Assembly (NCBI RefSeq): GCF_044324875.1
Contig: NZ_CP172185.1
From: Escherichia coli
Lineage (GTDB): Bacteria > Pseudomonadota > Gammaproteobacteria > Enterobacterales > Enterobacteriaceae
DNA length: 64,000 bases
Reading direction: 5' to 3' (one strand)
Positions 36,178 to 45,017 of this stretch are shown one piece after another. The first letter of the stretch is position 1, and every line of letters starts with the position of its first letter. The position numbers and the translations under genes were made by a program. The notes below the pieces were generated by a model. It made no database searches. It was given only the letters and a program-made list of their open reading frames with translations, and was not told the origin of the DNA.

Positions 36178-36690
36178 TCATTGTGATATTTCCATCTCTG
36201 TGATTAATACCGGATAAGCATTTAATTGCAGAGTTTGCACGAAATTATCGCAGATAACTGGCAATAACAATAACCCATCAGCCCGCTGCTGTAATACCTC
36301 CATTCGTTCTACTGATTCAACATTAACAACCAAACCAAGGGCATTTAGCGATTTAAGGATCTCCAGATGTTCACTCATCCAGCGCAGAGAAAAAGGATCA
36401 TCACCAATTATAAAAACAGGCCCCCAGCCGGTTAATAACTGGCGTTTCATTACGGAGCCAGGATGAAGTCGAGTACATATTACAGGAAATACCCCCTGTT
36501 GCGATGGTTCCGATGATGTGGATAATTCAGAAATATTTTCCATTGTTAGTGAAGAATTAACATCCATTAATAATGGTGAAACAACCTCACTTTCCTTGCT
36601 AGTAATGGCTGCACTAATCTGAAAGGAAAATAACAATATTATTACGTACAAACTTATTTTTAACATAACACATTCAATCCGTTTATTCAT
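36178..36690 (-). CDS. Hypothetical protein with N-terminal signal/TM segment (possible orphan immunity protein)
   Basis: 170-aa ORF, N-terminal hydrophobic stretch LKISLYVIILLFSFQISAA; AT-rich; no recognised domain. Confidence 0.35.
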   Translation of the reverse strand: MNKRIECVMLKISLYVIILLFSFQISAAITSKESEVVSPLLMDVNSSLTMENISELSTSSEPSQQGVFPVICTRLHPGSVMKRQLLTGWGPVFIIGDDPFSLRWMSEHLEILKSLNALGLVVNVESVERMEVLQQRADGLLLLPVICDNFVQTLQLNAYPVLITEMEISQ

Positions 36691-36756
36691 GTTATAGAAT
36701 AATAATGCTATAAATCATCATTAATGTTCAATTATTTAATCACACAATTTAAAAAA

Positions 36757-37260
36757 TCATCGACCAATGTGAATTGGCAATGTACCACTCAAGTTAAAAT
36801 CACTGAATATTTTATCAATTTCTCTTGCAGTTTCTATATATTTAACCTCTTTCGTACTTGCATTATAAATAGCCCAAGCCTCGGGATGGGATGTTCCACC
36901 AAACCTTACAAAAAAACTTGATTTCATATTATTATATAAATTAACATCAGGAAAAGGATCTTCTCCAAAATTAGTAGTATTAAATAATGAAAGTTCGTAT
37001 CGCTTAGAAAATTCTGTTGGTAGGATAGCTTCACTGCCATCAATAGCATTCATCCAGAGTTTGTTACCATTATATTCCAACAATAATCTCTGTTTTGCAT
37101 GTGTCTTATCTCGTTCTTTAACGACAGCGAATACCTTTTTAACAACTTGCTGTGCGGATGGTCCTATTGTATTACCAAAAGCTGGCAACCCGATTTTGCC
37201 ATAAACACTCTCCTGAATGAAATAAATATCCGTTTTATCGGCCTCGACAATATCTACCAT
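36757..37260 (-). CDS. Hypothetical cytoplasmic protein (possible orphan immunity or toxin-tip protein)
   Basis: 167-aa ORF, AT-rich, no recognised catalytic motif; lies between the two H-repeat copies. Confidence 0.35.
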   Translation of the reverse strand: MVDIVEADKTDIYFIQESVYGKIGLPAFGNTIGPSAQQVVKKVFAVVKERDKTHAKQRLLLEYNGNKLWMNAIDGSEAILPTEFSKRYELSLFNTTNFGEDPFPDVNLYNNMKSSFFVRFGGTSHPEAWAIYNASTKEVKYIETAREIDKIFSDFNLSGTLPIHIGR

Positions 37261-37369: not shown

Positions 37370-38530
37370 CAGGGCAAGATTACGAAAGCCCGCTCCCCGC
37401 AAGGACTGACGCCAGGTAGTTTCTGTCCATGGCTGCTTTTCGCATCTTACGTCTTAACCCTGCCTTGAATACCTTATCATTCGTCAAAATATTAATAGCA
37501 ATGTGCCGTATCCCTGAAAATAATTCTGCTGCGTTTCCTCTTCTTATTTTGCAGTCGTCTTCATTCATTACCACGTCCAGACGCCAGTGCAGCTTATTCT
37601 CCACGTGCCAGTGGTTTCGGATTGCTGTGGCGAACTTCTCTGCGGTTAAATCAGCAGAACTGATATAATATCTGACCGTCATTTCGGGCTCTTTCTTTTG
37701 TTCTGCTATTATTGACCGAAAGGAGACTGCCACGCATAATTTCTTCAGACCTTTCCATTCAAACGTGAAATCAATAAGTTCATCAGGGACATCGCAAACA
37801 ATATGAAGACGGATTTCTTCTCTGCCGTGACTCTTTTCACTCATTGCGTAACTGTCATGCTCTGGATTATTTAATTCTTTCAGTGGGAATTTTTCCTCAA
37901 AGGCTTTATTAAGCCGCCCCTGATTTCCTTTTACAGCGAATAAATAATCACCGCCCTGTTTTTGTATCTTCTCTGCAATATCTTTCTGGCAACCCATCGC
38001 ATCAGTTGTGATGATTTTTCCTTTAATATCCAGCATGTTAAGAAGTTCTGGGATAGCTGTAATCTCATTGGATTTCTCATCCGTCTTGATCTGTCCGATG
38101 ACCAGGCTGTGCATTGTTGAGAACGCACTAATGACATGAATCGCTCCCCTGCGGCGACTCTTGTCATAAGAGTGCCGGAGCGTTTTTCCATCAATTGCGA
38201 TGACGTCTTTATCATCTGAAGTATGGCAGTCTCGCATCCAGTTAATAAAGCACTCGTGAAATTTTGCAGGACTGATACAGGATACAACTCTGGCGATGGT
38301 ATCGTGAACAGGAATACCATTTTCAAAATCACCGTATTGTTTTAAAAAATCGAGATGTGTTTCCCCAAAATCCTCTATATCTTCCCAACCTTCTGCACCC
38401 GAAATAACGGCACAAATAGTCAACAGTAGAATATCCGACAATTTATGTTCCACTTTCCAGGCTTGTCTGTAATCGGGAATAACAGAAATATGCTCCATCA
38501 ATTTTTAAGTTCCATTTTGTTCCCCTTAAT
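37370..38530 (-). mobile_element. H-repeat (ISAs1-family) element, apparently intact
   Basis: Encloses a full-length transposase ORF; ends approximate, inverted repeats not resolved by eye. Confidence 0.6.
37380..38501 (-). CDS. ISAs1-family (H-repeat-associated) transposase
   Basis: 373-aa [50 protein letters not shown]... typical of Rhs-associated H-rpt proteins. Confidence 0.8.
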
Positions 38531-38810
38531 TATGTAAGGAGTATTTGATCATGTATAAGTAATAAAAAACAGCCTCAGGTAATGAGGAATATCTCAAATT
38601 TTAAACATAAAATGCGAATTATTTAGTACAAAAAAGCAGCGTTACGTGATCTTTCCCTGTGCCGGTACCTTTGTCGTTTAATCTGGCAGCTAAAGGCATA
38701 TTGTTTTCCTGTCTGGAATATCAGCGACAAAAAATTTAAAAAACGGTAAGGTGCTTAACTCAGTAATAATCACCTTACCGGACATCCTGATTTGTAGCCC
38801 AACAGGTTAA

Positions 38811-39821
38811 TCAAGTAACAGGGATAAACTGACCATCAATCAGCGAAAATACCGGAGCGTAATACCCCATACGCTCTTCACCACTTTCATCTGTAAAACG
38901 GTAAGTCAGTGGGGAATATATTGGTTTCGATTTATTATATAGCTGCACCATACGTCCACCATTCATAACCCGGACGGCATAATCGTCCCACCTGATGGGC
39001 TGCATTCTGGCTTTCCCTCCCTCCACATTATCTTTTGAGAAGAGTGAGAGTAATATGTCATCCTCAGAGTCACCGGTTGTGGCTGACCATGCCTTCAGCG
39101 CCTCTTTGTTATAAGCTTTCAGACGTGCCCTGTCCCGGCTACTGATGATGCTTGCCATTTCGGTATAGGCGGCTTTTAACTTCCGTAACTGCTCGTCGCT
39201 TCCGGTATAGGGGGTTGCCCGCGTCCAGGCCCATTCAGGAAGCCCTGTCACGGTAACTTTTTGAGTGAACTGATACACCTTCATCCCTTTCGGGAAATAG
39301 GTTTCATCAAAATAATCTGGATCAATAAATCCTGGCTCCGCCTGCTCAGCCAAAATCTCTTTCCGGATAACGGGATGCACGCTGTCTGGCCGGGCTTCAG
39401 GTATGCCCTGCTGGTTGATGGTCACTTTTATTGAAGAAAGCAGCGTTTCCTCCTGTTTAATAAAACGAACCAAATCCAGGCTGCATCCTGCTTTTGGAAA
39501 AAAACGCCCCCGTTCTTCCATACTGGCAGGCTTGTCAGAAAACCATCCTAATGCCCCAATCTCCAGACTGATTTCATTTTCTCCATTCGCCATCAGCATC
39601 ATGGCATTGGTGCTGGATATGGCCCCGGTTGAATCACCATTTGCCCGCCAGGCACTTCTTCGGTTACTGAACCCGAGGACGCCATTAGTCTTAATGGCAC
39701 AATATGACTCTTCAATATTAAACTTACTGCGAATTTTTTGCTGGTTATCGTTAGAGCAAAATCCAGTTCCCATAACAACTCCTGACAGTAAAATAACCGA
39801 TATTAAATGTTTTGCCTTCAT
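38811..39821 (-). CDS. Secreted protein, candidate T6SS immunity protein
   Basis: 336-aa ORF with signal peptide and cysteine at the end of the hydrophobic region (MKAKHLISVILLSGVVMGTGFC); immediately downstream of the candidate effector; AT-rich. Confidence 0.45.
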   Translation of the reverse strand: MKAKHLISVILLSGVVMGTGFCSNDNQQKIRSKFNIEESYCAIKTNGVLGFSNRRSAWRANGDSTGAISSTNAMMLMANGENEISLEIGALGWFSDKPASMEERGRFFPKAGCSLDLVRFIKQEETLLSSIKVTINQQGIPEARPDSVHPVIRKEILAEQAEPGFIDPDYFDETYFPKGMKVYQFTQKVTVTGLPEWAWTRATPYTGSDEQLRKLKAAYTEMASIISSRDRARLKAYNKEALKAWSATTGDSEDDILLSLFSKDNVEGGKARMQPIRWDDYAVRVMNGGRMVQLYNKSKPIYSPLTYRFTDESGEERMGYYAPVFSLIDGQFIPVT

Positions 39822-39887
39822 AATTATTCTCTCTCAAAAGGGGAAAATACTCATTATACTGTTCACTTTTAATTTCTGTAATATCAC

Positions 39888-41459
39888 TTAATAATCCATA
39901 CCTATCGTCCACGTTGTCACTGGCTTCGGCGGTGTTACTTTTTTCTCCACAGTGCGTTCTTTACCGTATAAATTAACCCGTAATGGTGAATCCTTTACCT
40001 CCATAGGATCACATAACTGCCACTCAACGGTATCTTTCTTCTCAGGTTTTTCGCTCTTTTCCTTCCCCTTTCCTTTTTCATCAACTTCACCATGAGACAC
40101 ATCAATCTTAAATTCAAACTTCCCTTTAATGCCGTCATGAAATAATGCTAGGTCCAGTCCGTCATCATGTGAATCAAATCCAAATCCAGCTTTCGCTTCT
40201 ATAGAGGCAGTCGCTTCGGCGGTCAGTTGTACAACAAAAACATTCGCCTCAAACGTCGCACTCACCACACCTTTTAAACCGAGCTTGATGTTACTTTCCT
40301 TTACATTAAACTCCCATTTTTTATCCTTTTCAGCGTATACTGCGCCAAGATCAAGATTAATCTCCGCTGAAATCTCGATATAGCATTCAACACTGGCTCC
40401 GTTTTTACGGAGATATTCACGACATCTGTTGACCAATGACTCGACTTTACAATATGCACATATAAATGAAATAATATCGAATCTGAACGACGCTTCAAAA
40501 AATGGGGCACCAAACAAACCATAAAAATGACAGGGGCCATCCTGGATATCGGTATATTGATAGGCATACGATATACCCAGTTTAACGGGTTCTATTTTTG
40601 CACTGAACAATGCATATTTGCGCGTACCATTATTATTGTCAGGATCTGGCGCAAAATATTTATTGACATTCTTGACCAGAGAGTCAATTCTTCCTATCTG
40701 TTCCAGTTGCTTTGTTTGTCGAAGTTTTTTTATCTCTTTTTCATATTCACTTGTGTGTTCAACATTAGCTATTTTTACGCCAAAATCGACAGTCAGGGAA
40801 GTCTTGTTTATCCACTCAAACTCAGCAGTGGTATTTGTCCAGCCGCTACGGAGTTTATTTTTATCCCTGGGCTTGGTGTTCTCCATTGCGTCCCTGGCTT
40901 TTATTCTTTCGTCACGCCGCTCTTTTACTGTTCTCGTCTGTTTTGATGACGAAATCTCATAGCTGAACCCTGTAGTAAACCTAATTTCCACTGTAGGATA
41001 AACATCAATTTCAACATAATTGCCACATTCGTAACAACTGTCAATTCTGACTGAATAATGGGCAGGTTCATAATGATTCTTAAGTGGAGAGGATATTGCC
41101 CCCAAATAATCCCATGGTACTCGAAATGTACCCATAGCAATTATTTCACCTTCAGACAAGTTATCATCCAAAGTGACCTTATTAGGTATTCCGAAAGGTT
41201 GCAGTATCTTATGATTATTTTCTGATTCTTCCTCTAACCATGCCTCATGTGTTCCACTTTTATCGCACTGGTAGGTAATGGTAATTATACCATCACATCC
41301 GGAACCATCATCCAGTAGCTTAAAACGCGCCACTCCTTCTTTTGACCAGAAATGTTTCTCGCCGGCCTCTGGAAAATCACTAATAACATCAAAAATACAT
41401 GGATCAGGAATGCCGCATTCCACACAGGGCTTTCCGGCTGTCGAAGATGGAGATGTCAT
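39888..41459 (-). CDS. Candidate T6SS cargo effector of unknown function
   Basis: 523-aa ORF downstream of the DUF4123 adaptor gene; Cys-rich N-terminus (CVECGIPDPC, CYECGNY), charged coiled-coil-like middle, Lys/Glu-rich C-terminus; no motif I recognise; AT-rich. Confidence 0.45.
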   Translation of the reverse strand: MTSPSSTAGKPCVECGIPDPCIFDVISDFPEAGEKHFWSKEGVARFKLLDDGSGCDGIITITYQCDKSGTHEAWLEEESENNHKILQPFGIPNKVTLDDNLSEGEIIAMGTFRVPWDYLGAISSPLKNHYEPAHYSVRIDSCYECGNYVEIDVYPTVEIRFTTGFSYEISSSKQTRTVKERRDERIKARDAMENTKPRDKNKLRSGWTNTTAEFEWINKTSLTVDFGVKIANVEHTSEYEKEIKKLRQTKQLEQIGRIDSLVKNVNKYFAPDPDNNNGTRKYALFSAKIEPVKLGISYAYQYTDIQDGPCHFYGLFGAPFFEASFRFDIISFICAYCKVESLVNRCREYLRKNGASVECYIEISAEINLDLGAVYAEKDKKWEFNVKESNIKLGLKGVVSATFEANVFVVQLTAEATASIEAKAGFGFDSHDDGLDLALFHDGIKGKFEFKIDVSHGEVDEKGKGKEKSEKPEKKDTVEWQLCDPMEVKDSPLRVNLYGKERTVEKKVTPPKPVTTWTIGMDY

Positions 41460-41480
41460 ATAATCTATCCGTTTGTCTTT

Positions 41481-42323
41481 TTATTGTGGGATAAATCCCA
41501 GTTCCTGTTGTGCAAGTTCATGTACCCGAATATGTCCCGGGTATGACTGATTGCTGAGTTGTTCATACCAGTCATCCGGAATATATCTGAGATCGATTAT
41601 ATTTTTTTTCAGTAATATAAGCGTCATTGTTCTGACGGAACGATCATCTGCTATATTTAATGACTGGCAAAAAGAGAAATAATCTTCTGCCAGAATTCGG
41701 GATGATTCAGCTTTTGATGAATCATCCCATCCGTTTTTATCTACATTTTCTTCGATAAATGCAGATAATATATCAAGATAATTATCCCGTGCCTTTCGTT
41801 CCAGTTGGCTATATTGTCTGTAACTCAGCGTCAGTTGTGATGGCCGTTCTGCCCTTATATTCATAGTTTCTGCGGGACGGACGGAAGAAAAATTATCCTC
41901 ACGACATTCTTCACCATAACGGGTACTTAGCTGTCTGACGGGACTGATAAAAGAAAGACGCTGGCGGGGGGTCAGAACTTCCACTAATACCCATATATTC
42001 CGGGGATCATAAAATCGCATGAGAACAGGTTTCTCCTGTTCGGGGATCCTAACCCACAGATAACGTCTGAAGTGTTGCTGTAGCTCACGCATGGATGACT
42101 CAGAAGTCAGATATATTCCCCATGGCGACGCCTTAACACTCAGCCATGCTTCAACCTCCGGAACGACTTCCACGAGATAGGGGGCTAGCGCGACCAGATC
42201 CAGTTGTATGGGTTCTGCATACAGACAACAGTGCGGGGGATTCACCTCGTTCAGAAAATCCAGCAATCCTTCCTCCACAGCGCCATCCACAATGGCGTAC
42301 TGCACGGGTGCCGTTTCCATCAC
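41481..42323 (-). CDS. DUF4123-family T6SS effector adaptor/chaperone (Tap/Tec-like)
   Basis: 280-aa ORF with the family's N-terminal YAIVDGA-type motif; start overlaps the vgrG stop (ATGA). Confidence 0.7.
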   Translation of the reverse strand: MMETAPVQYAIVDGAVEEGLLDFLNEVNPPHCCLYAEPIQLDLVALAPYLVEVVPEVEAWLSVKASPWGIYLTSESSMRELQQHFRRYLWVRIPEQEKPVLMRFYDPRNIWVLVEVLTPRQRLSFISPVRQLSTRYGEECREDNFSSVRPAETMNIRAERPSQLTLSYRQYSQLERKARDNYLDILSAFIEENVDKNGWDDSSKAESSRILAEDYFSFCQSLNIADDRSVRTMTLILLKKNIIDLRYIPDDWYEQLSNQSYPGHIRVHELAQQELGFIPQ

Positions 42324-44278
42324 TTATCCTCCTTCGGGCAGTGCGCCACAAACATTGTCCCGCTTCCGGCTGCGGCTTTCAGGATCACCGGGCGCATCGG
42401 CAGGATCACGTCTCCCGGACTGCCTCCGCCGTTAAGATTGATTTTCGCGCCCTTAATATCCACGCCGCCGGAATGGATCACCACAAATGAACCGCCCACC
42501 CGCAGACTGATTTTGCTGTCGCTCTGTAAAACAATATCGCCCTGTACGCTGATACCCAGCGCGCCGCTTATTTTCTGTGCCAGATCGCCTTTCACCTCCA
42601 GCCCCTGATTGCCCTCTGTCAGGCTGACATGGTCTTTGGTGGTTTTATGGTCCTGTTTACCTTCAACCGTCACTTTCCGGTCATTTGCCACCACCAGGGA
42701 TTCATCATGCCCGATGCTGACCGTCCGGTCATAGTTGACCCGCTTATCCTTGCTGTTCAGCACAACGACTTGCATATTTTTCTGTGCGTGCAGGTAAATT
42801 TCTTCCTTGTCCGTCGCGTCCTCGAACCGCAGTTCATTAAAGCCGCTTCCTTTATAGGTCTTCGATCGTATCGTCATCTGCGTCTTCGTCCCCGGCAGAC
42901 TCCCCGGCGAACGGTTGTCCTCATGGTACGTCCGCCCCATGATTATCGGCTGGTCCGGGTCGCCGTTCAGGAAGTCTACAATCACTTCCTGGCCGATGCG
43001 CGGTATCGCCAGGTTACCAAATCCCGGCCCCGCCCACGCCTGCGACACCCTCACCCAGCATGAACTCGCCTCCGTTGCCGGGTTATACCTGTCCCAGTGA
43101 AACTGCACTCGCACACGTCCGTGTTCGTCGCAGAAGATTTCCTCTCCCGCAGGACCGGTGACAATGGCGCTCTGTGGCCCGTCCACCTTCGGTTTGCTTT
43201 GCAGCCGTGGACGCCACGTCCGGTCCGCCGGTATCACCTCTAACTGATTTCCCAGCATGGTTCCTCTCCCCTGGCTGCCGTGCAGCGCCTGCGGCTGGTC
43301 CCCTGACAGAATACTCTGTACCACCTGCCATTCACGGTTCAGCATCTTCTGCGGATGCCCCGTCAGCGTAAACCGCGTTCCCGGCCACAGCTTCGGTGAA
43401 TTACTCTGCCCTGTGGCCTTTTCCGCATCACTGCGCAGGCTCTCCATCTGGTACAGCGTGAAATCCTTGCCGTGCTGTTCATCCTTGAACCTTCCCGGAT
43501 AATCAAATATCTCATACTGCTCCAGCTGTCCGTTCAGGTTCTCACCCTGCTGCTCATACATCCCCGGCCAGTCCGGCACCTTAAACGTGTAATCCTGGCT
43601 CTGCACCGACGACGGGCGGACATACGCCTCATAACGGAACATACTGACACACTCTGTCTCCGCTCCTGCCGATGTGTCCGGGTTAAACGGAAGCTCTCCC
43701 GCCTGTGACAGCCCCGCCACATCGTCGCACAGCGTCAGCTTCTGCTCCGGACTGTCCGCCGCAAACCGCTCAAAGAAGAAAATTCCCTCCTCCGCCCACA
43801 ACCGCGCCAGAAACGCCAGGTCGCTTTCCCCGTACTGGACACAGAACTCCCGCGCCGGATGGTCCTCATAAAACAGCGGTGTCCACTCCGTGACGCCGTT
43901 CTCGTTCAGTAACGTGGCCGATATCGTCCGGATATCCTGCTGCTGGAAGATACGGAAGTTCTGCCGCAGCCCGCACCGCCATAACGGCGGCTCAATACGC
44001 AGGTGATAACGCATCTGCCAGCCATTGTTCTCCTGCATGCCAAAACCCGCCACCACGCCGGTGACATAACGCAGCGGGATGACGCCCTGCCAGATGGTCA
44101 GCGTCGCCTTCTTCTCCAGCAGCATCTCCGCCGTCTGCATAAAAGAGTCGCTGGCAACATCCACACTCATCACAAACGGATAAGACTGGTTCTGGATTAA
44201 CCTGAAATGCACCACTGCAAAGGTGTCCGGCTCCTGGCCGTCAATCTCCAGCGTAAAGCGCAGACCTTTTAAGGACAT
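42320..44278 (-). CDS. vgrG: T6SS spike protein VgrG
   Basis: 652-aa ORF MSLKGLRFTLEIDGQE... with gp27/gp5-like VgrG architecture and C-terminal beta-helical repeats. Confidence 0.9.
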   Translation of the reverse strand: MSLKGLRFTLEIDGQEPDTFAVVHFRLIQNQSYPFVMSVDVASDSFMQTAEMLLEKKATLTIWQGVIPLRYVTGVVAGFGMQENNGWQMRYHLRIEPPLWRCGLRQNFRIFQQQDIRTISATLLNENGVTEWTPLFYEDHPAREFCVQYGESDLAFLARLWAEEGIFFFERFAADSPEQKLTLCDDVAGLSQAGELPFNPDTSAGAETECVSMFRYEAYVRPSSVQSQDYTFKVPDWPGMYEQQGENLNGQLEQYEIFDYPGRFKDEQHGKDFTLYQMESLRSDAEKATGQSNSPKLWPGTRFTLTGHPQKMLNREWQVVQSILSGDQPQALHGSQGRGTMLGNQLEVIPADRTWRPRLQSKPKVDGPQSAIVTGPAGEEIFCDEHGRVRVQFHWDRYNPATEASSCWVRVSQAWAGPGFGNLAIPRIGQEVIVDFLNGDPDQPIIMGRTYHEDNRSPGSLPGTKTQMTIRSKTYKGSGFNELRFEDATDKEEIYLHAQKNMQVVVLNSKDKRVNYDRTVSIGHDESLVVANDRKVTVEGKQDHKTTKDHVSLTEGNQGLEVKGDLAQKISGALGISVQGDIVLQSDSKISLRVGGSFVVIHSGGVDIKGAKINLNGGGSPGDVILPMRPVILKAAAGSGTMFVAHCPKEDK

Positions 44279-44498: not shown

Positions 44499-45017
44499 TT
44501 ATGCTTCCAGCGGTGCACGCCAGTCATCGGCACCAGAAGTACCGGATTTGATGTGCTCCCACTCAACCTTACGGTATGCCAGTGATACTGCGAGCAATTG
44601 CGTAAACTCACGCTGTGCAGGGTCCTGGCAGTGCGGCATGTGCAGGTTCATGTCCACAATCGTCGCGTCAGTAAGACGTGTGGTGAAGTAGTGCTCCTGC
44701 TTGCCTTCAACTGAAGTACGCCACCAGTGCAGCTCCACTTTCGGCAGCATTTCACCGGAGGCCAGCGCGTTGTACAGCAGCGGAACGGCTTTGTTCAGCG
44801 CCACGGTGAAAATGAACGGTTTGTGCGCGCGCTGCCCGGAAGGTTGACCAGACTGTGGATCGGTTGGAACAGTAACGTTATGCAGAAACTCCTGCACCAG
44901 CATTTCATCTTCGTGTCCCTGCACGTAGATATTGCCGACAGAATCTGCGGTGAAAGCACCGGCAGTGATGTTCCCCTGGGTCTGACCTGTAATTGAAATG
45001 TAACATGGGGTTGGCAT
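44499..45017 (-). CDS. hcp: T6SS inner tube protein Hcp
   Basis: 172-aa ORF MPTPCYISITGQTQGNITAGAF... typical Hcp. Confidence 0.9.
   Translation of the reverse strand: MPTPCYISITGQTQGNITAGAFTADSVGNIYVQGHEDEMLVQEFLHNVTVPTDPQSGQPSGQRAHKPFIFTVALNKAVPLLYNALASGEMLPKVELHWWRTSVEGKQEHYFTTRLTDATIVDMNLHMPHCQDPAQREFTQLLAVSLAYRKVEWEHIKSGTSGADDWRAPLEA

Follow-up and report, generated by a model that had tools for sequence, protein, structure and literature searches.

What do the genes behind vgrG at the end of a type VI secretion system (T6SS) cluster of Escherichia coli encode, and do they form a new effector system? The question is raised by the window analysed here, a stretch of 64,000 nucleotides from contig NZ_CP172185.1 (RefSeq assembly GCF_044324875.1), in which a sequence-only reading had described positions 38,811 to 42,323 as an uncharacterised cassette with a candidate new effector. 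The locus is the end of a T6SS-2-type cluster adjoining fadE-ivy-yafV, and its minus strand carries, in order, hcp, vgrG, a DUF4123 adaptor gene and two open reading frames (ORFs) of 523 and 336 amino acids (aa). The vgrG spike gene (42320-44278, 652 aa) matches TIGR03361 (VI_Rhs_Vgr, E=4.4e-179) and has the same length in strains E15 and Nissle; the adaptor gene (41481-42323) matches PF13503 (E=2.7e-25, residues 9-122), and the genes for the 523-aa and 336-aa proteins follow at 39888-41459 and 38811-39821. The order of vgrG, adaptor, large protein and signal-peptide protein is thereby borne out by the ORFs, both domain matches and the signal sequence.

We conclude with good confidence that a complete T6SS cargo module directed against bacteria is encoded here, consisting of a Bte3-like periplasmic toxin (a probable EcBte3 orthologue), its adaptor and its immunity protein. 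The idea of a periplasm-acting effector loaded through VgrG and DUF4123, with a secreted immunity partner in a separate AT-rich module, is well supported by synteny, co-occurrence and published work. The claim of novelty is not supported, in view of genes reported in 2024 (PMC11114119) and of the EcBte3/EcBti3 family reported in 2026 (PMC13402684): the cassette is a member of a published toxin family and not a new system. The sequence-only reading had said that its proposal would fall if the 523-aa protein confidently matched an effector family characterised before, and such a match is largely what the Bte3 family provides.

Conservation and distribution of the effector-immunity pair

We read the pair as a periplasm-acting effector with its immunity protein because the linkage to vgrG and DUF4123 is strict, the partner occurs as tandem paralogues, and only the partner carries a signal peptide. 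Effector homologues down to about 15% identity always come after vgrG-DUF4123, and behind them stand between one and three paralogues of the 336-aa protein; this synteny persists among homologues only 14-20% identical to the window protein. The order is vgrG-DUF4123-effector-PAAR with three immunity paralogues before PAAR in Pectobacterium, hcp-vgrG-DUF4123-effector-PAAR with two such paralogues in Morganella, and hcp-vgrG-DUF4123-effector followed by two paralogues in Photobacterium. Photorhabdus thracensis (CP011104; L010 1873-21596, L004) has vgrG-DUF4123-PAAR and then at least eight tandem, translationally coupled pairs, each consisting of a full-length effector homologue (481-531 aa) and a signal-peptide partner (286-307 aa). 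A partner stands alongside the effector in every locus examined in these four genera, and the partners there are homologues of the 336-aa protein (hhalign probabilities of 99.8, 98.0 and 100). As a separate observation, the P. thracensis array is an unusually long run of complete effector-immunity pairs behind one spike gene.

Among 5426 complete E. coli genomes the effector and immunity genes co-occur (328 and 329 genomes), as two alleles, and no orphan immunity genes are evident in this set. The stretch 38700-42400 is 100% identical to enteroaggregative E. coli (EAEC) 042 and many other strains and is found in 339 of the same genomes. Of complete E. coli genomes about 6% carry the cassette, among them those of EAEC 042 and of Nissle 1917, a probiotic strain; according to PMC11114119 it also occurs in the uropathogenic strain UMN026. 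Several genomes (H1, H16, H40, H52, H58) have IS1 insertions within the effector or the immunity gene, which suggests recurrent inactivation of the module.

The effector family is small and spans Enterobacterales and Vibrionaceae: a word-indexed search yielded 37 clusters at 90% identity, and a full hidden Markov model search of 1.84 billion representatives found 79 relatives. None of the ten clusters looked up bears a functional name (all are annotated as hypothetical), and a second word-indexed search with a broad alignment returned no further relatives and no domain fusions. The immunity family search gave 193 matches, again all hypothetical.

Published counterparts

The first published counterpart is the set ECUMN_0231/0232/0233 of UMN026, proposed as a chaperone/effector/immunity system (PMC11114119, PeerJ 2024). 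These are apparently the same genes as in the window, judging from genes of equal length (1,572 and 1,011 bp), the overlap of vgrG with the DUF4123 gene and the identical quoted signal peptide (MKAKHLISVILLSGVVMG); both sets also lie in a T6SS-2 cluster. The evidence given for UMN026 consists of bioinformatic predictions, prevalence by polymerase chain reaction (PCR), reverse-transcription PCR and competition, without a toxicity test or a fold assignment.

The second counterpart is Bte3/Bti3 of Bacteroides fragilis, characterised by Valguarnera et al. (Nat Commun 2026, PMC13402684), who located Bti3 in the periplasm and outer membrane, showed functional immunity for it, and reported structural orthologues in Pseudomonadota, namely EcBte3/EcBti3 of E. 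coli Nissle 1917. In EcBte3 the same study describes a single beta-sandwich (22-155); its locus includes a DUF4123 chaperone, and pelB-EcBte3 is lethal whereas cytosolic EcBte3 is not. B. fragilis Bte3 differs in having three beta-sandwiches and Ate3/Pte3 accessories in place of DUF4123; it also forms high-molecular-weight species resistant to sodium dodecyl sulphate (SDS) and is required for T6SS function (PMC13402684). The window pair shares with both systems a beta-sandwich plus C-terminal barrel-like sheet and a signal-peptide partner that has a beta-sandwich at its N-terminus, and with EcBte3/EcBti3 it also shares the enterobacterial T6SS locus with a DUF4123 chaperone. In PMC12718326 (PNAS, 2025) the name Bte3 is given to a B. 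fragilis 638R toxin that was renamed, and this may not be the protein of PMC13402684. The resistance screen with that toxin enriched batD, which would be a lead to the target only if it is the same protein as the open-barrel toxin of PMC13402684, and this result is not used here.

In Nissle the locus reads PAAR-vgrG-DUF4123-516 aa-321 aa-PAAR, and the window proteins are 76% (effector), 84% (immunity) and 94% (adaptor) identical to their Nissle counterparts. The window effector is a different allele, with its divergence concentrated after residue 95 or so: compared with the Nissle effector (L009 8055-9605) it is about 99% identical over the first 95 or so residues, diverges sharply between residues 96 and 135, and shows scattered differences in the barrel.

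Since B. fragilis Bte3 is needed for T6SS function (PMC13402684) and the three genes are over-represented among isolates from urinary tract infection (UTI; PMC11114119), it might be argued that the 523-aa protein is mainly a structural or accessory part of the spike, or a UTI-linked anti-host effector, with the 336-aa protein being an unrelated periplasmic protein. We consider this very improbable, given that the lethality of EcBte3 in E. coli is specific to the periplasm (PMC13402684), that no association with UTI symptoms was seen (PMC11114119), and that toxin-immunity systems are typified by tandem arrays, both of partner paralogues and of whole effector/partner pairs.

Sequence and predicted fold of the effector

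By sequence, the 523-aa protein has no significant match in Pfam (best APG12, E=0.13), none in NCBIfam, and only chance-level hits in the Protein Data Bank (PDB), whether searched alone or as a family profile (Windbeutel, E=0.35). By structure, Foldseek pairs the effector model, at a probability of 1.00, with proteins that are themselves uncharacterised, from Bacteroides uniformis (E=1.7e-12), from Flavobacterium columnare (1.3e-15) and from F. hercynium. We infer from these model comparisons that the hits are Bte3 orthologues; PMC13402684 names B. uniformis and F. columnare only for T6SS clusters bearing orthologues of Ate3, the Bte3 adaptor.

The AlphaFold2 (AF2) model consists of an N-terminal beta-sandwich (about 22-167), a C-terminal amphipathic beta-sheet or barrel of long strands (about 285-500; strands of 15-23 residues) and few helices, and so has the beta-sandwich plus barrel-like architecture of Bte3-like proteins. 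Along the strands hydrophobic and polar residues alternate almost perfectly, and the alignment shows this to be family-wide. Hydropathy reveals neither a signal peptide nor a segment of transmembrane-helix length, with a 19-residue Kyte-Doolittle (KD) maximum of 1.19 (threshold 1.6).

The earlier statement that no catalytic motif can be assigned to the protein holds, as GxSxG, HxxD, HExxH and HxKxxxxD are all absent. Three known effector classes do not fit either. For Tle1-5, Pfam and NCBIfam show no lipase, DUF2235 or PLD domain, in keeping with the missing GxSxG and HxKxxxxD. For Tae and Tge, no NlpC/P60, CHAP, amidase or lysozyme-like domain is found in Pfam, NCBIfam, PDB or the family profile, and the predicted fold is all-beta with few helices. 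For helical pore formers such as VasX, Ssp6, Tme and the Tse5 C-terminal domain, the effector has no hydrophobic or colicin-like helical domain, its model being dominated by beta-strands.

The module resembles known DUF4123 (Tap-1/TEC/VasW) cargo systems in its layout: the order vgrG-DUF4123-effector-immunity is shared with VasX, TseL and Tde1. Neither in sequence nor in fold is the effector related to VasX (colicin-like and helical), TseL/Tle (lipases) or Tde (a nuclease). The Tle1-Tli1-Tla1 modules of EAEC Sci-1 and Enterobacter likewise pair a periplasm-acting cargo with a periplasmic immunity protein. The window adaptor weakly matches the Tle1 chaperone Tla1 in NCBIfam (39.6 bits, far under the cutoff of 200), but the effector differs from Tle1 in lacking a DUF2235 or lipase domain and GxSxG.

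Three candidates by motif or relationship were rejected. A MIX-type motif was sought by eye, but LRSGW does not match hRxGhhYhh; TseVF is a 1141-aa protein with a helical toxin domain; and BteO is reported to be an OmpA binder, with no solved structure matching the effector by sequence.

Conservation was scored over members down to 14% identity to the window protein. Roughly 12 positions are invariant or nearly so (C15, C21, C65, Y135, C142, P155, P319, D328, R347, H441, G443, S491), and they are mostly Cys, Pro, Gly or Tyr. Many effector homologues also end in a C-terminal motif PWAMG(S/T)NP (alignment A1, columns about 535-573), which is duplicated in Pectobacterium and relatives; the window effector has only a degenerate copy, TWTIGMDY.

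The immunity partner

The AF2 model of the 336-aa protein (pLDDT 91) shows a beta-sandwich (28-191) behind the signal peptide and then a putative NTF2-like domain (209-334) in which helices (209-266) are followed by a sheet; there is no match in Pfam. As a neighbouring gene whose product has a signal peptide and a predicted N-terminal beta-sandwich, it has the features of a Bti3-like partner and is a predicted periplasmic immunity protein of EcBti3 type. NTF2-fold immunity proteins (Imm-NTF2 type) in polymorphic toxin systems were reportedly described by Zhang and colleagues in 2012, and the NTF2-like fold is said to form an alpha+beta cone.

The hydrophobic signal sequence (19-residue KD maximum 1.72, residues 5-23) is kept in 42 homologues, and most of the cleavage sites are of Ala-X-Ala type. 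In RefSeq the gene begins only at Met17 (320 aa; in 042, L001 12112-13074) and so loses the signal peptide, but conservation supports the longer ORF. Cys22 of the window allele might possibly make the protein a lipoprotein; this status is uncertain, and the residue is not conserved among homologues (Nissle has Tyr at that position).

In the 66-bp spacer between the effector and immunity genes lies a sigma-70-like promoter match (ATTACA-18-TATAAT, 39853-39882, minus strand), found by consensus scan alone, which could give the immunity gene its own promoter. A separate immunity promoter had been speculated on for UMN026 from expression data (PMC11114119).

Adaptor, translational coupling and base composition

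The adaptor gene lies between the vgrG and effector genes, the position expected of the adaptor in DUF4123 (Tap/Tec) adaptor-dependent VgrG cargo. If translation begins at the ATG (42320) its product has 279 aa; with the GTG (42323) as start codon it has 280. At the junction (AAGGAGGATAAGTGATGG) the vgrG TGA shares 1 nt with the ATG or 4 nt with the GTG, and a strong Shine-Dalgarno sequence, AAGGAGG, lies within the 3' end of vgrG ahead of the adaptor start. The coupling of the adaptor start to the vgrG stop, as first described, is confirmed by these features.

The description of the effector and the next gene as markedly AT-richer than the core needs some adjustment. The G+C content (GC) of the effector gene is 40.4%, against 56.3% for the T6SS core and 57.4% for vgrG, so that this part stands; the immunity gene, however, is only modestly AT-richer (46.6%), and the break in composition falls inside the adaptor gene, of which the 5' half has 51% GC and the 3' half 39%. 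The composition fits a swapped cassette in which the C-terminus of the adaptor goes with the effector and immunity genes. It suggests that the cargo recombines at a boundary within the adaptor, where the DUF4123 domain that faces VgrG gives way to a C-terminal half specific to the effector, and in this travelling of the C-terminal half with the cargo the window is again like the known DUF4123 systems.

Proposed mode of action

Taking the module as a Bte3-like toxin with adaptor and immunity protein, the following sequence of events can be proposed. The adaptor would be made in step with VgrG through the translational coupling seen in the sequence, and would then bind the conserved effector N-terminus and load the effector on the VgrG spike, as known DUF4123 adaptors do; such binding is suggested by how little the adaptor and the first 95 or so residues of the effector vary from one E. 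coli allele to the other. On firing, the T6SS would deliver the effector to the periplasm of a Gram-negative neighbour. There the exposed barrel might insert into, or bind, a conserved component of the outer membrane or envelope and act non-enzymatically. The 336-aa protein would be exported to the periplasm of the producer and neutralise incoming toxin in sibling cells by direct binding, as synteny, tandem paralogues and the published Bti3 data lead us to expect.

Non-enzymatic killing is favoured here because few polar residues are conserved, the amphipathic strands are barrel-like and activity extends across phyla; we hold it with low confidence, at somewhat under even chances. A precedent is BteO/BtiO of B. 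fragilis, for which PMC12541434 reports non-enzymatic periplasmic killing by binding of the conserved envelope protein OmpA.

Several points weigh against the overall interpretation or its mechanistic part. The effector model is of moderate quality (pLDDT 69, pTM 0.61). The likeness to Bacteroidota proteins, seen with the uncharacterised Foldseek hits, is one of fold only, with sequence similarity undetectable. The link to EcBte3 passes through the Nissle 516-aa protein (WP_001529091), which is presumed to be EcBte3 in view of the strain, its DUF4123 neighbourhood, domain boundaries at 22-155 and the Foldseek matches. The UMN026 competition data are for the wild type, with no mutants (PMC11114119). 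Loss of a PAAR gene at the distal boundary (described below) raises doubt about delivery of the module in the source strain. Finally, a catalytic site could be made up of the near-invariant D328, H441 and S491, and an immunity protein that is soluble in the periplasm goes more typically with enzymatic effectors (Tle, Tae) than with pore formers.

The last two observations bear on the possibility that the module is the same but the toxin a cryptic enzyme, for instance a hydrolase acting on peptidoglycan, lipid or lipoprotein through D328/H441/S491 or conserved Cys, with the beta-barrel as scaffold as in the outer-membrane barrel enzymes OMPLA, PagL and omptins. These three residues are among the few near-invariant polar ones even with members down to 14% identity included; the immunity protein is large, soluble and periplasmic, as with Tle and Tae effectors, which argues somewhat for an enzyme and against a pore; and few T6SS molecules are delivered per firing, which favours catalytic toxins. 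Set against the scarcity of conserved polar residues overall and the absent motifs, we regard an enzyme as unlikely.

A beta-barrel pore former, oligomerising or inserting from the periplasm in the inner (or outer) membrane and causing depolarisation or leakage, would likewise leave the module as it is. The long strands with strict dyad amphipathicity speak for it, as do the top structural matches, which are transmembrane barrels and autotransporter barrels; moreover, few molecules suffice for a pore. The SDS-resistant high-molecular-weight species of B. fragilis Bte3 (PMC13402684) is compatible, by analogy, with an oligomer or a barrel assembly. Given the soluble immunity protein, we rate a pore as quite improbable.

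A more specific form of the non-enzymatic reading may be offered as speculation, and we think it improbable: as cross-phylum toxins, these proteins might dock through an unclosed amphipathic barrel by strand augmentation, or insert as a rogue barrel, with the conserved outer-membrane assembly machine (the BamA lateral gate or LptD/Lpt) as candidate docking targets. If true, this would account for the killing of both Bacteroidota and Enterobacteria, and the E. coli alleles would be variants without cross-immunity. More generally, the Bte3-like toxin family is common to Bacteroidota and Proteobacteria and confers a strong colonisation advantage in the neonatal gut (PMC13402684). Its target appears conserved across phyla, and its identification could therefore expose a weak point of the Gram-negative envelope that is new; for mechanism and target, however, the window offers no more testable a case than the published strains.

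Boundaries of the module and neighbouring features

Unless stated otherwise, the features below are on the minus strand. Upstream, hcp (44499-45017, 172 aa) is the first gene of the hcp-vgrG-cargo transcription unit and is called an Hcp family T6SS effector in the annotation of the identical 042 locus. In that annotation vgrG (L001 15678-17579) is flagged by RefSeq as an incomplete pseudogene although the 652-aa ORF equals the length in other strains, and the flag looks like an artefact of annotation. Past the end of the immunity gene, downstream, a terminator-like hairpin was read directly off the sequence at 38738-38780 (10-bp stem CGGTAAGGTG/CACCTTACCG, 17-nt loop, T6), its loop exceeding the limit of the terminator scanner. 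An Rfam scan of the region gave no informative match.

The distal boundary is formed by an ISAs1-family transposase gene (37380-38501; NF033564, E=1.6e-125), called ISEc1 in the 042 annotation. The end of this insertion sequence lies near 38660 and cuts a PAAR gene remnant of 26 codons (38619-38699; ORF MPLAARLNDKGTGTGKDH...), which resembles the N-termini of Morganella and Pectobacterium PAAR proteins. At the same position E. coli E15 and Nissle have an intact PAAR gene of 94 aa, followed in E15 by another effector module, of the type vgrG-DUF2169-PAAR-like. The comparison indicates that the ISAs1/ISEc1 insertion removed the PAAR gene and any further module present in other strains. The cassette in the window is thus intact by its sequence, but the dedicated PAAR tip is lost and the cluster may be without a tip of its own.

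Beyond the transposase, next to yafV at 36178-37260, are two ORFs very rich in AT (GC 35-38%), which lie between the ISAs1/ISEc1 copy and an ISAs1 fragment located beside yafV in the annotation of 042. One is 167 aa long and has no family match; the other encodes a PFL_4695-family integrating-conjugative-element protein (TIGR03765, E=2.2e-35), and together they look like the debris of another mobile element.

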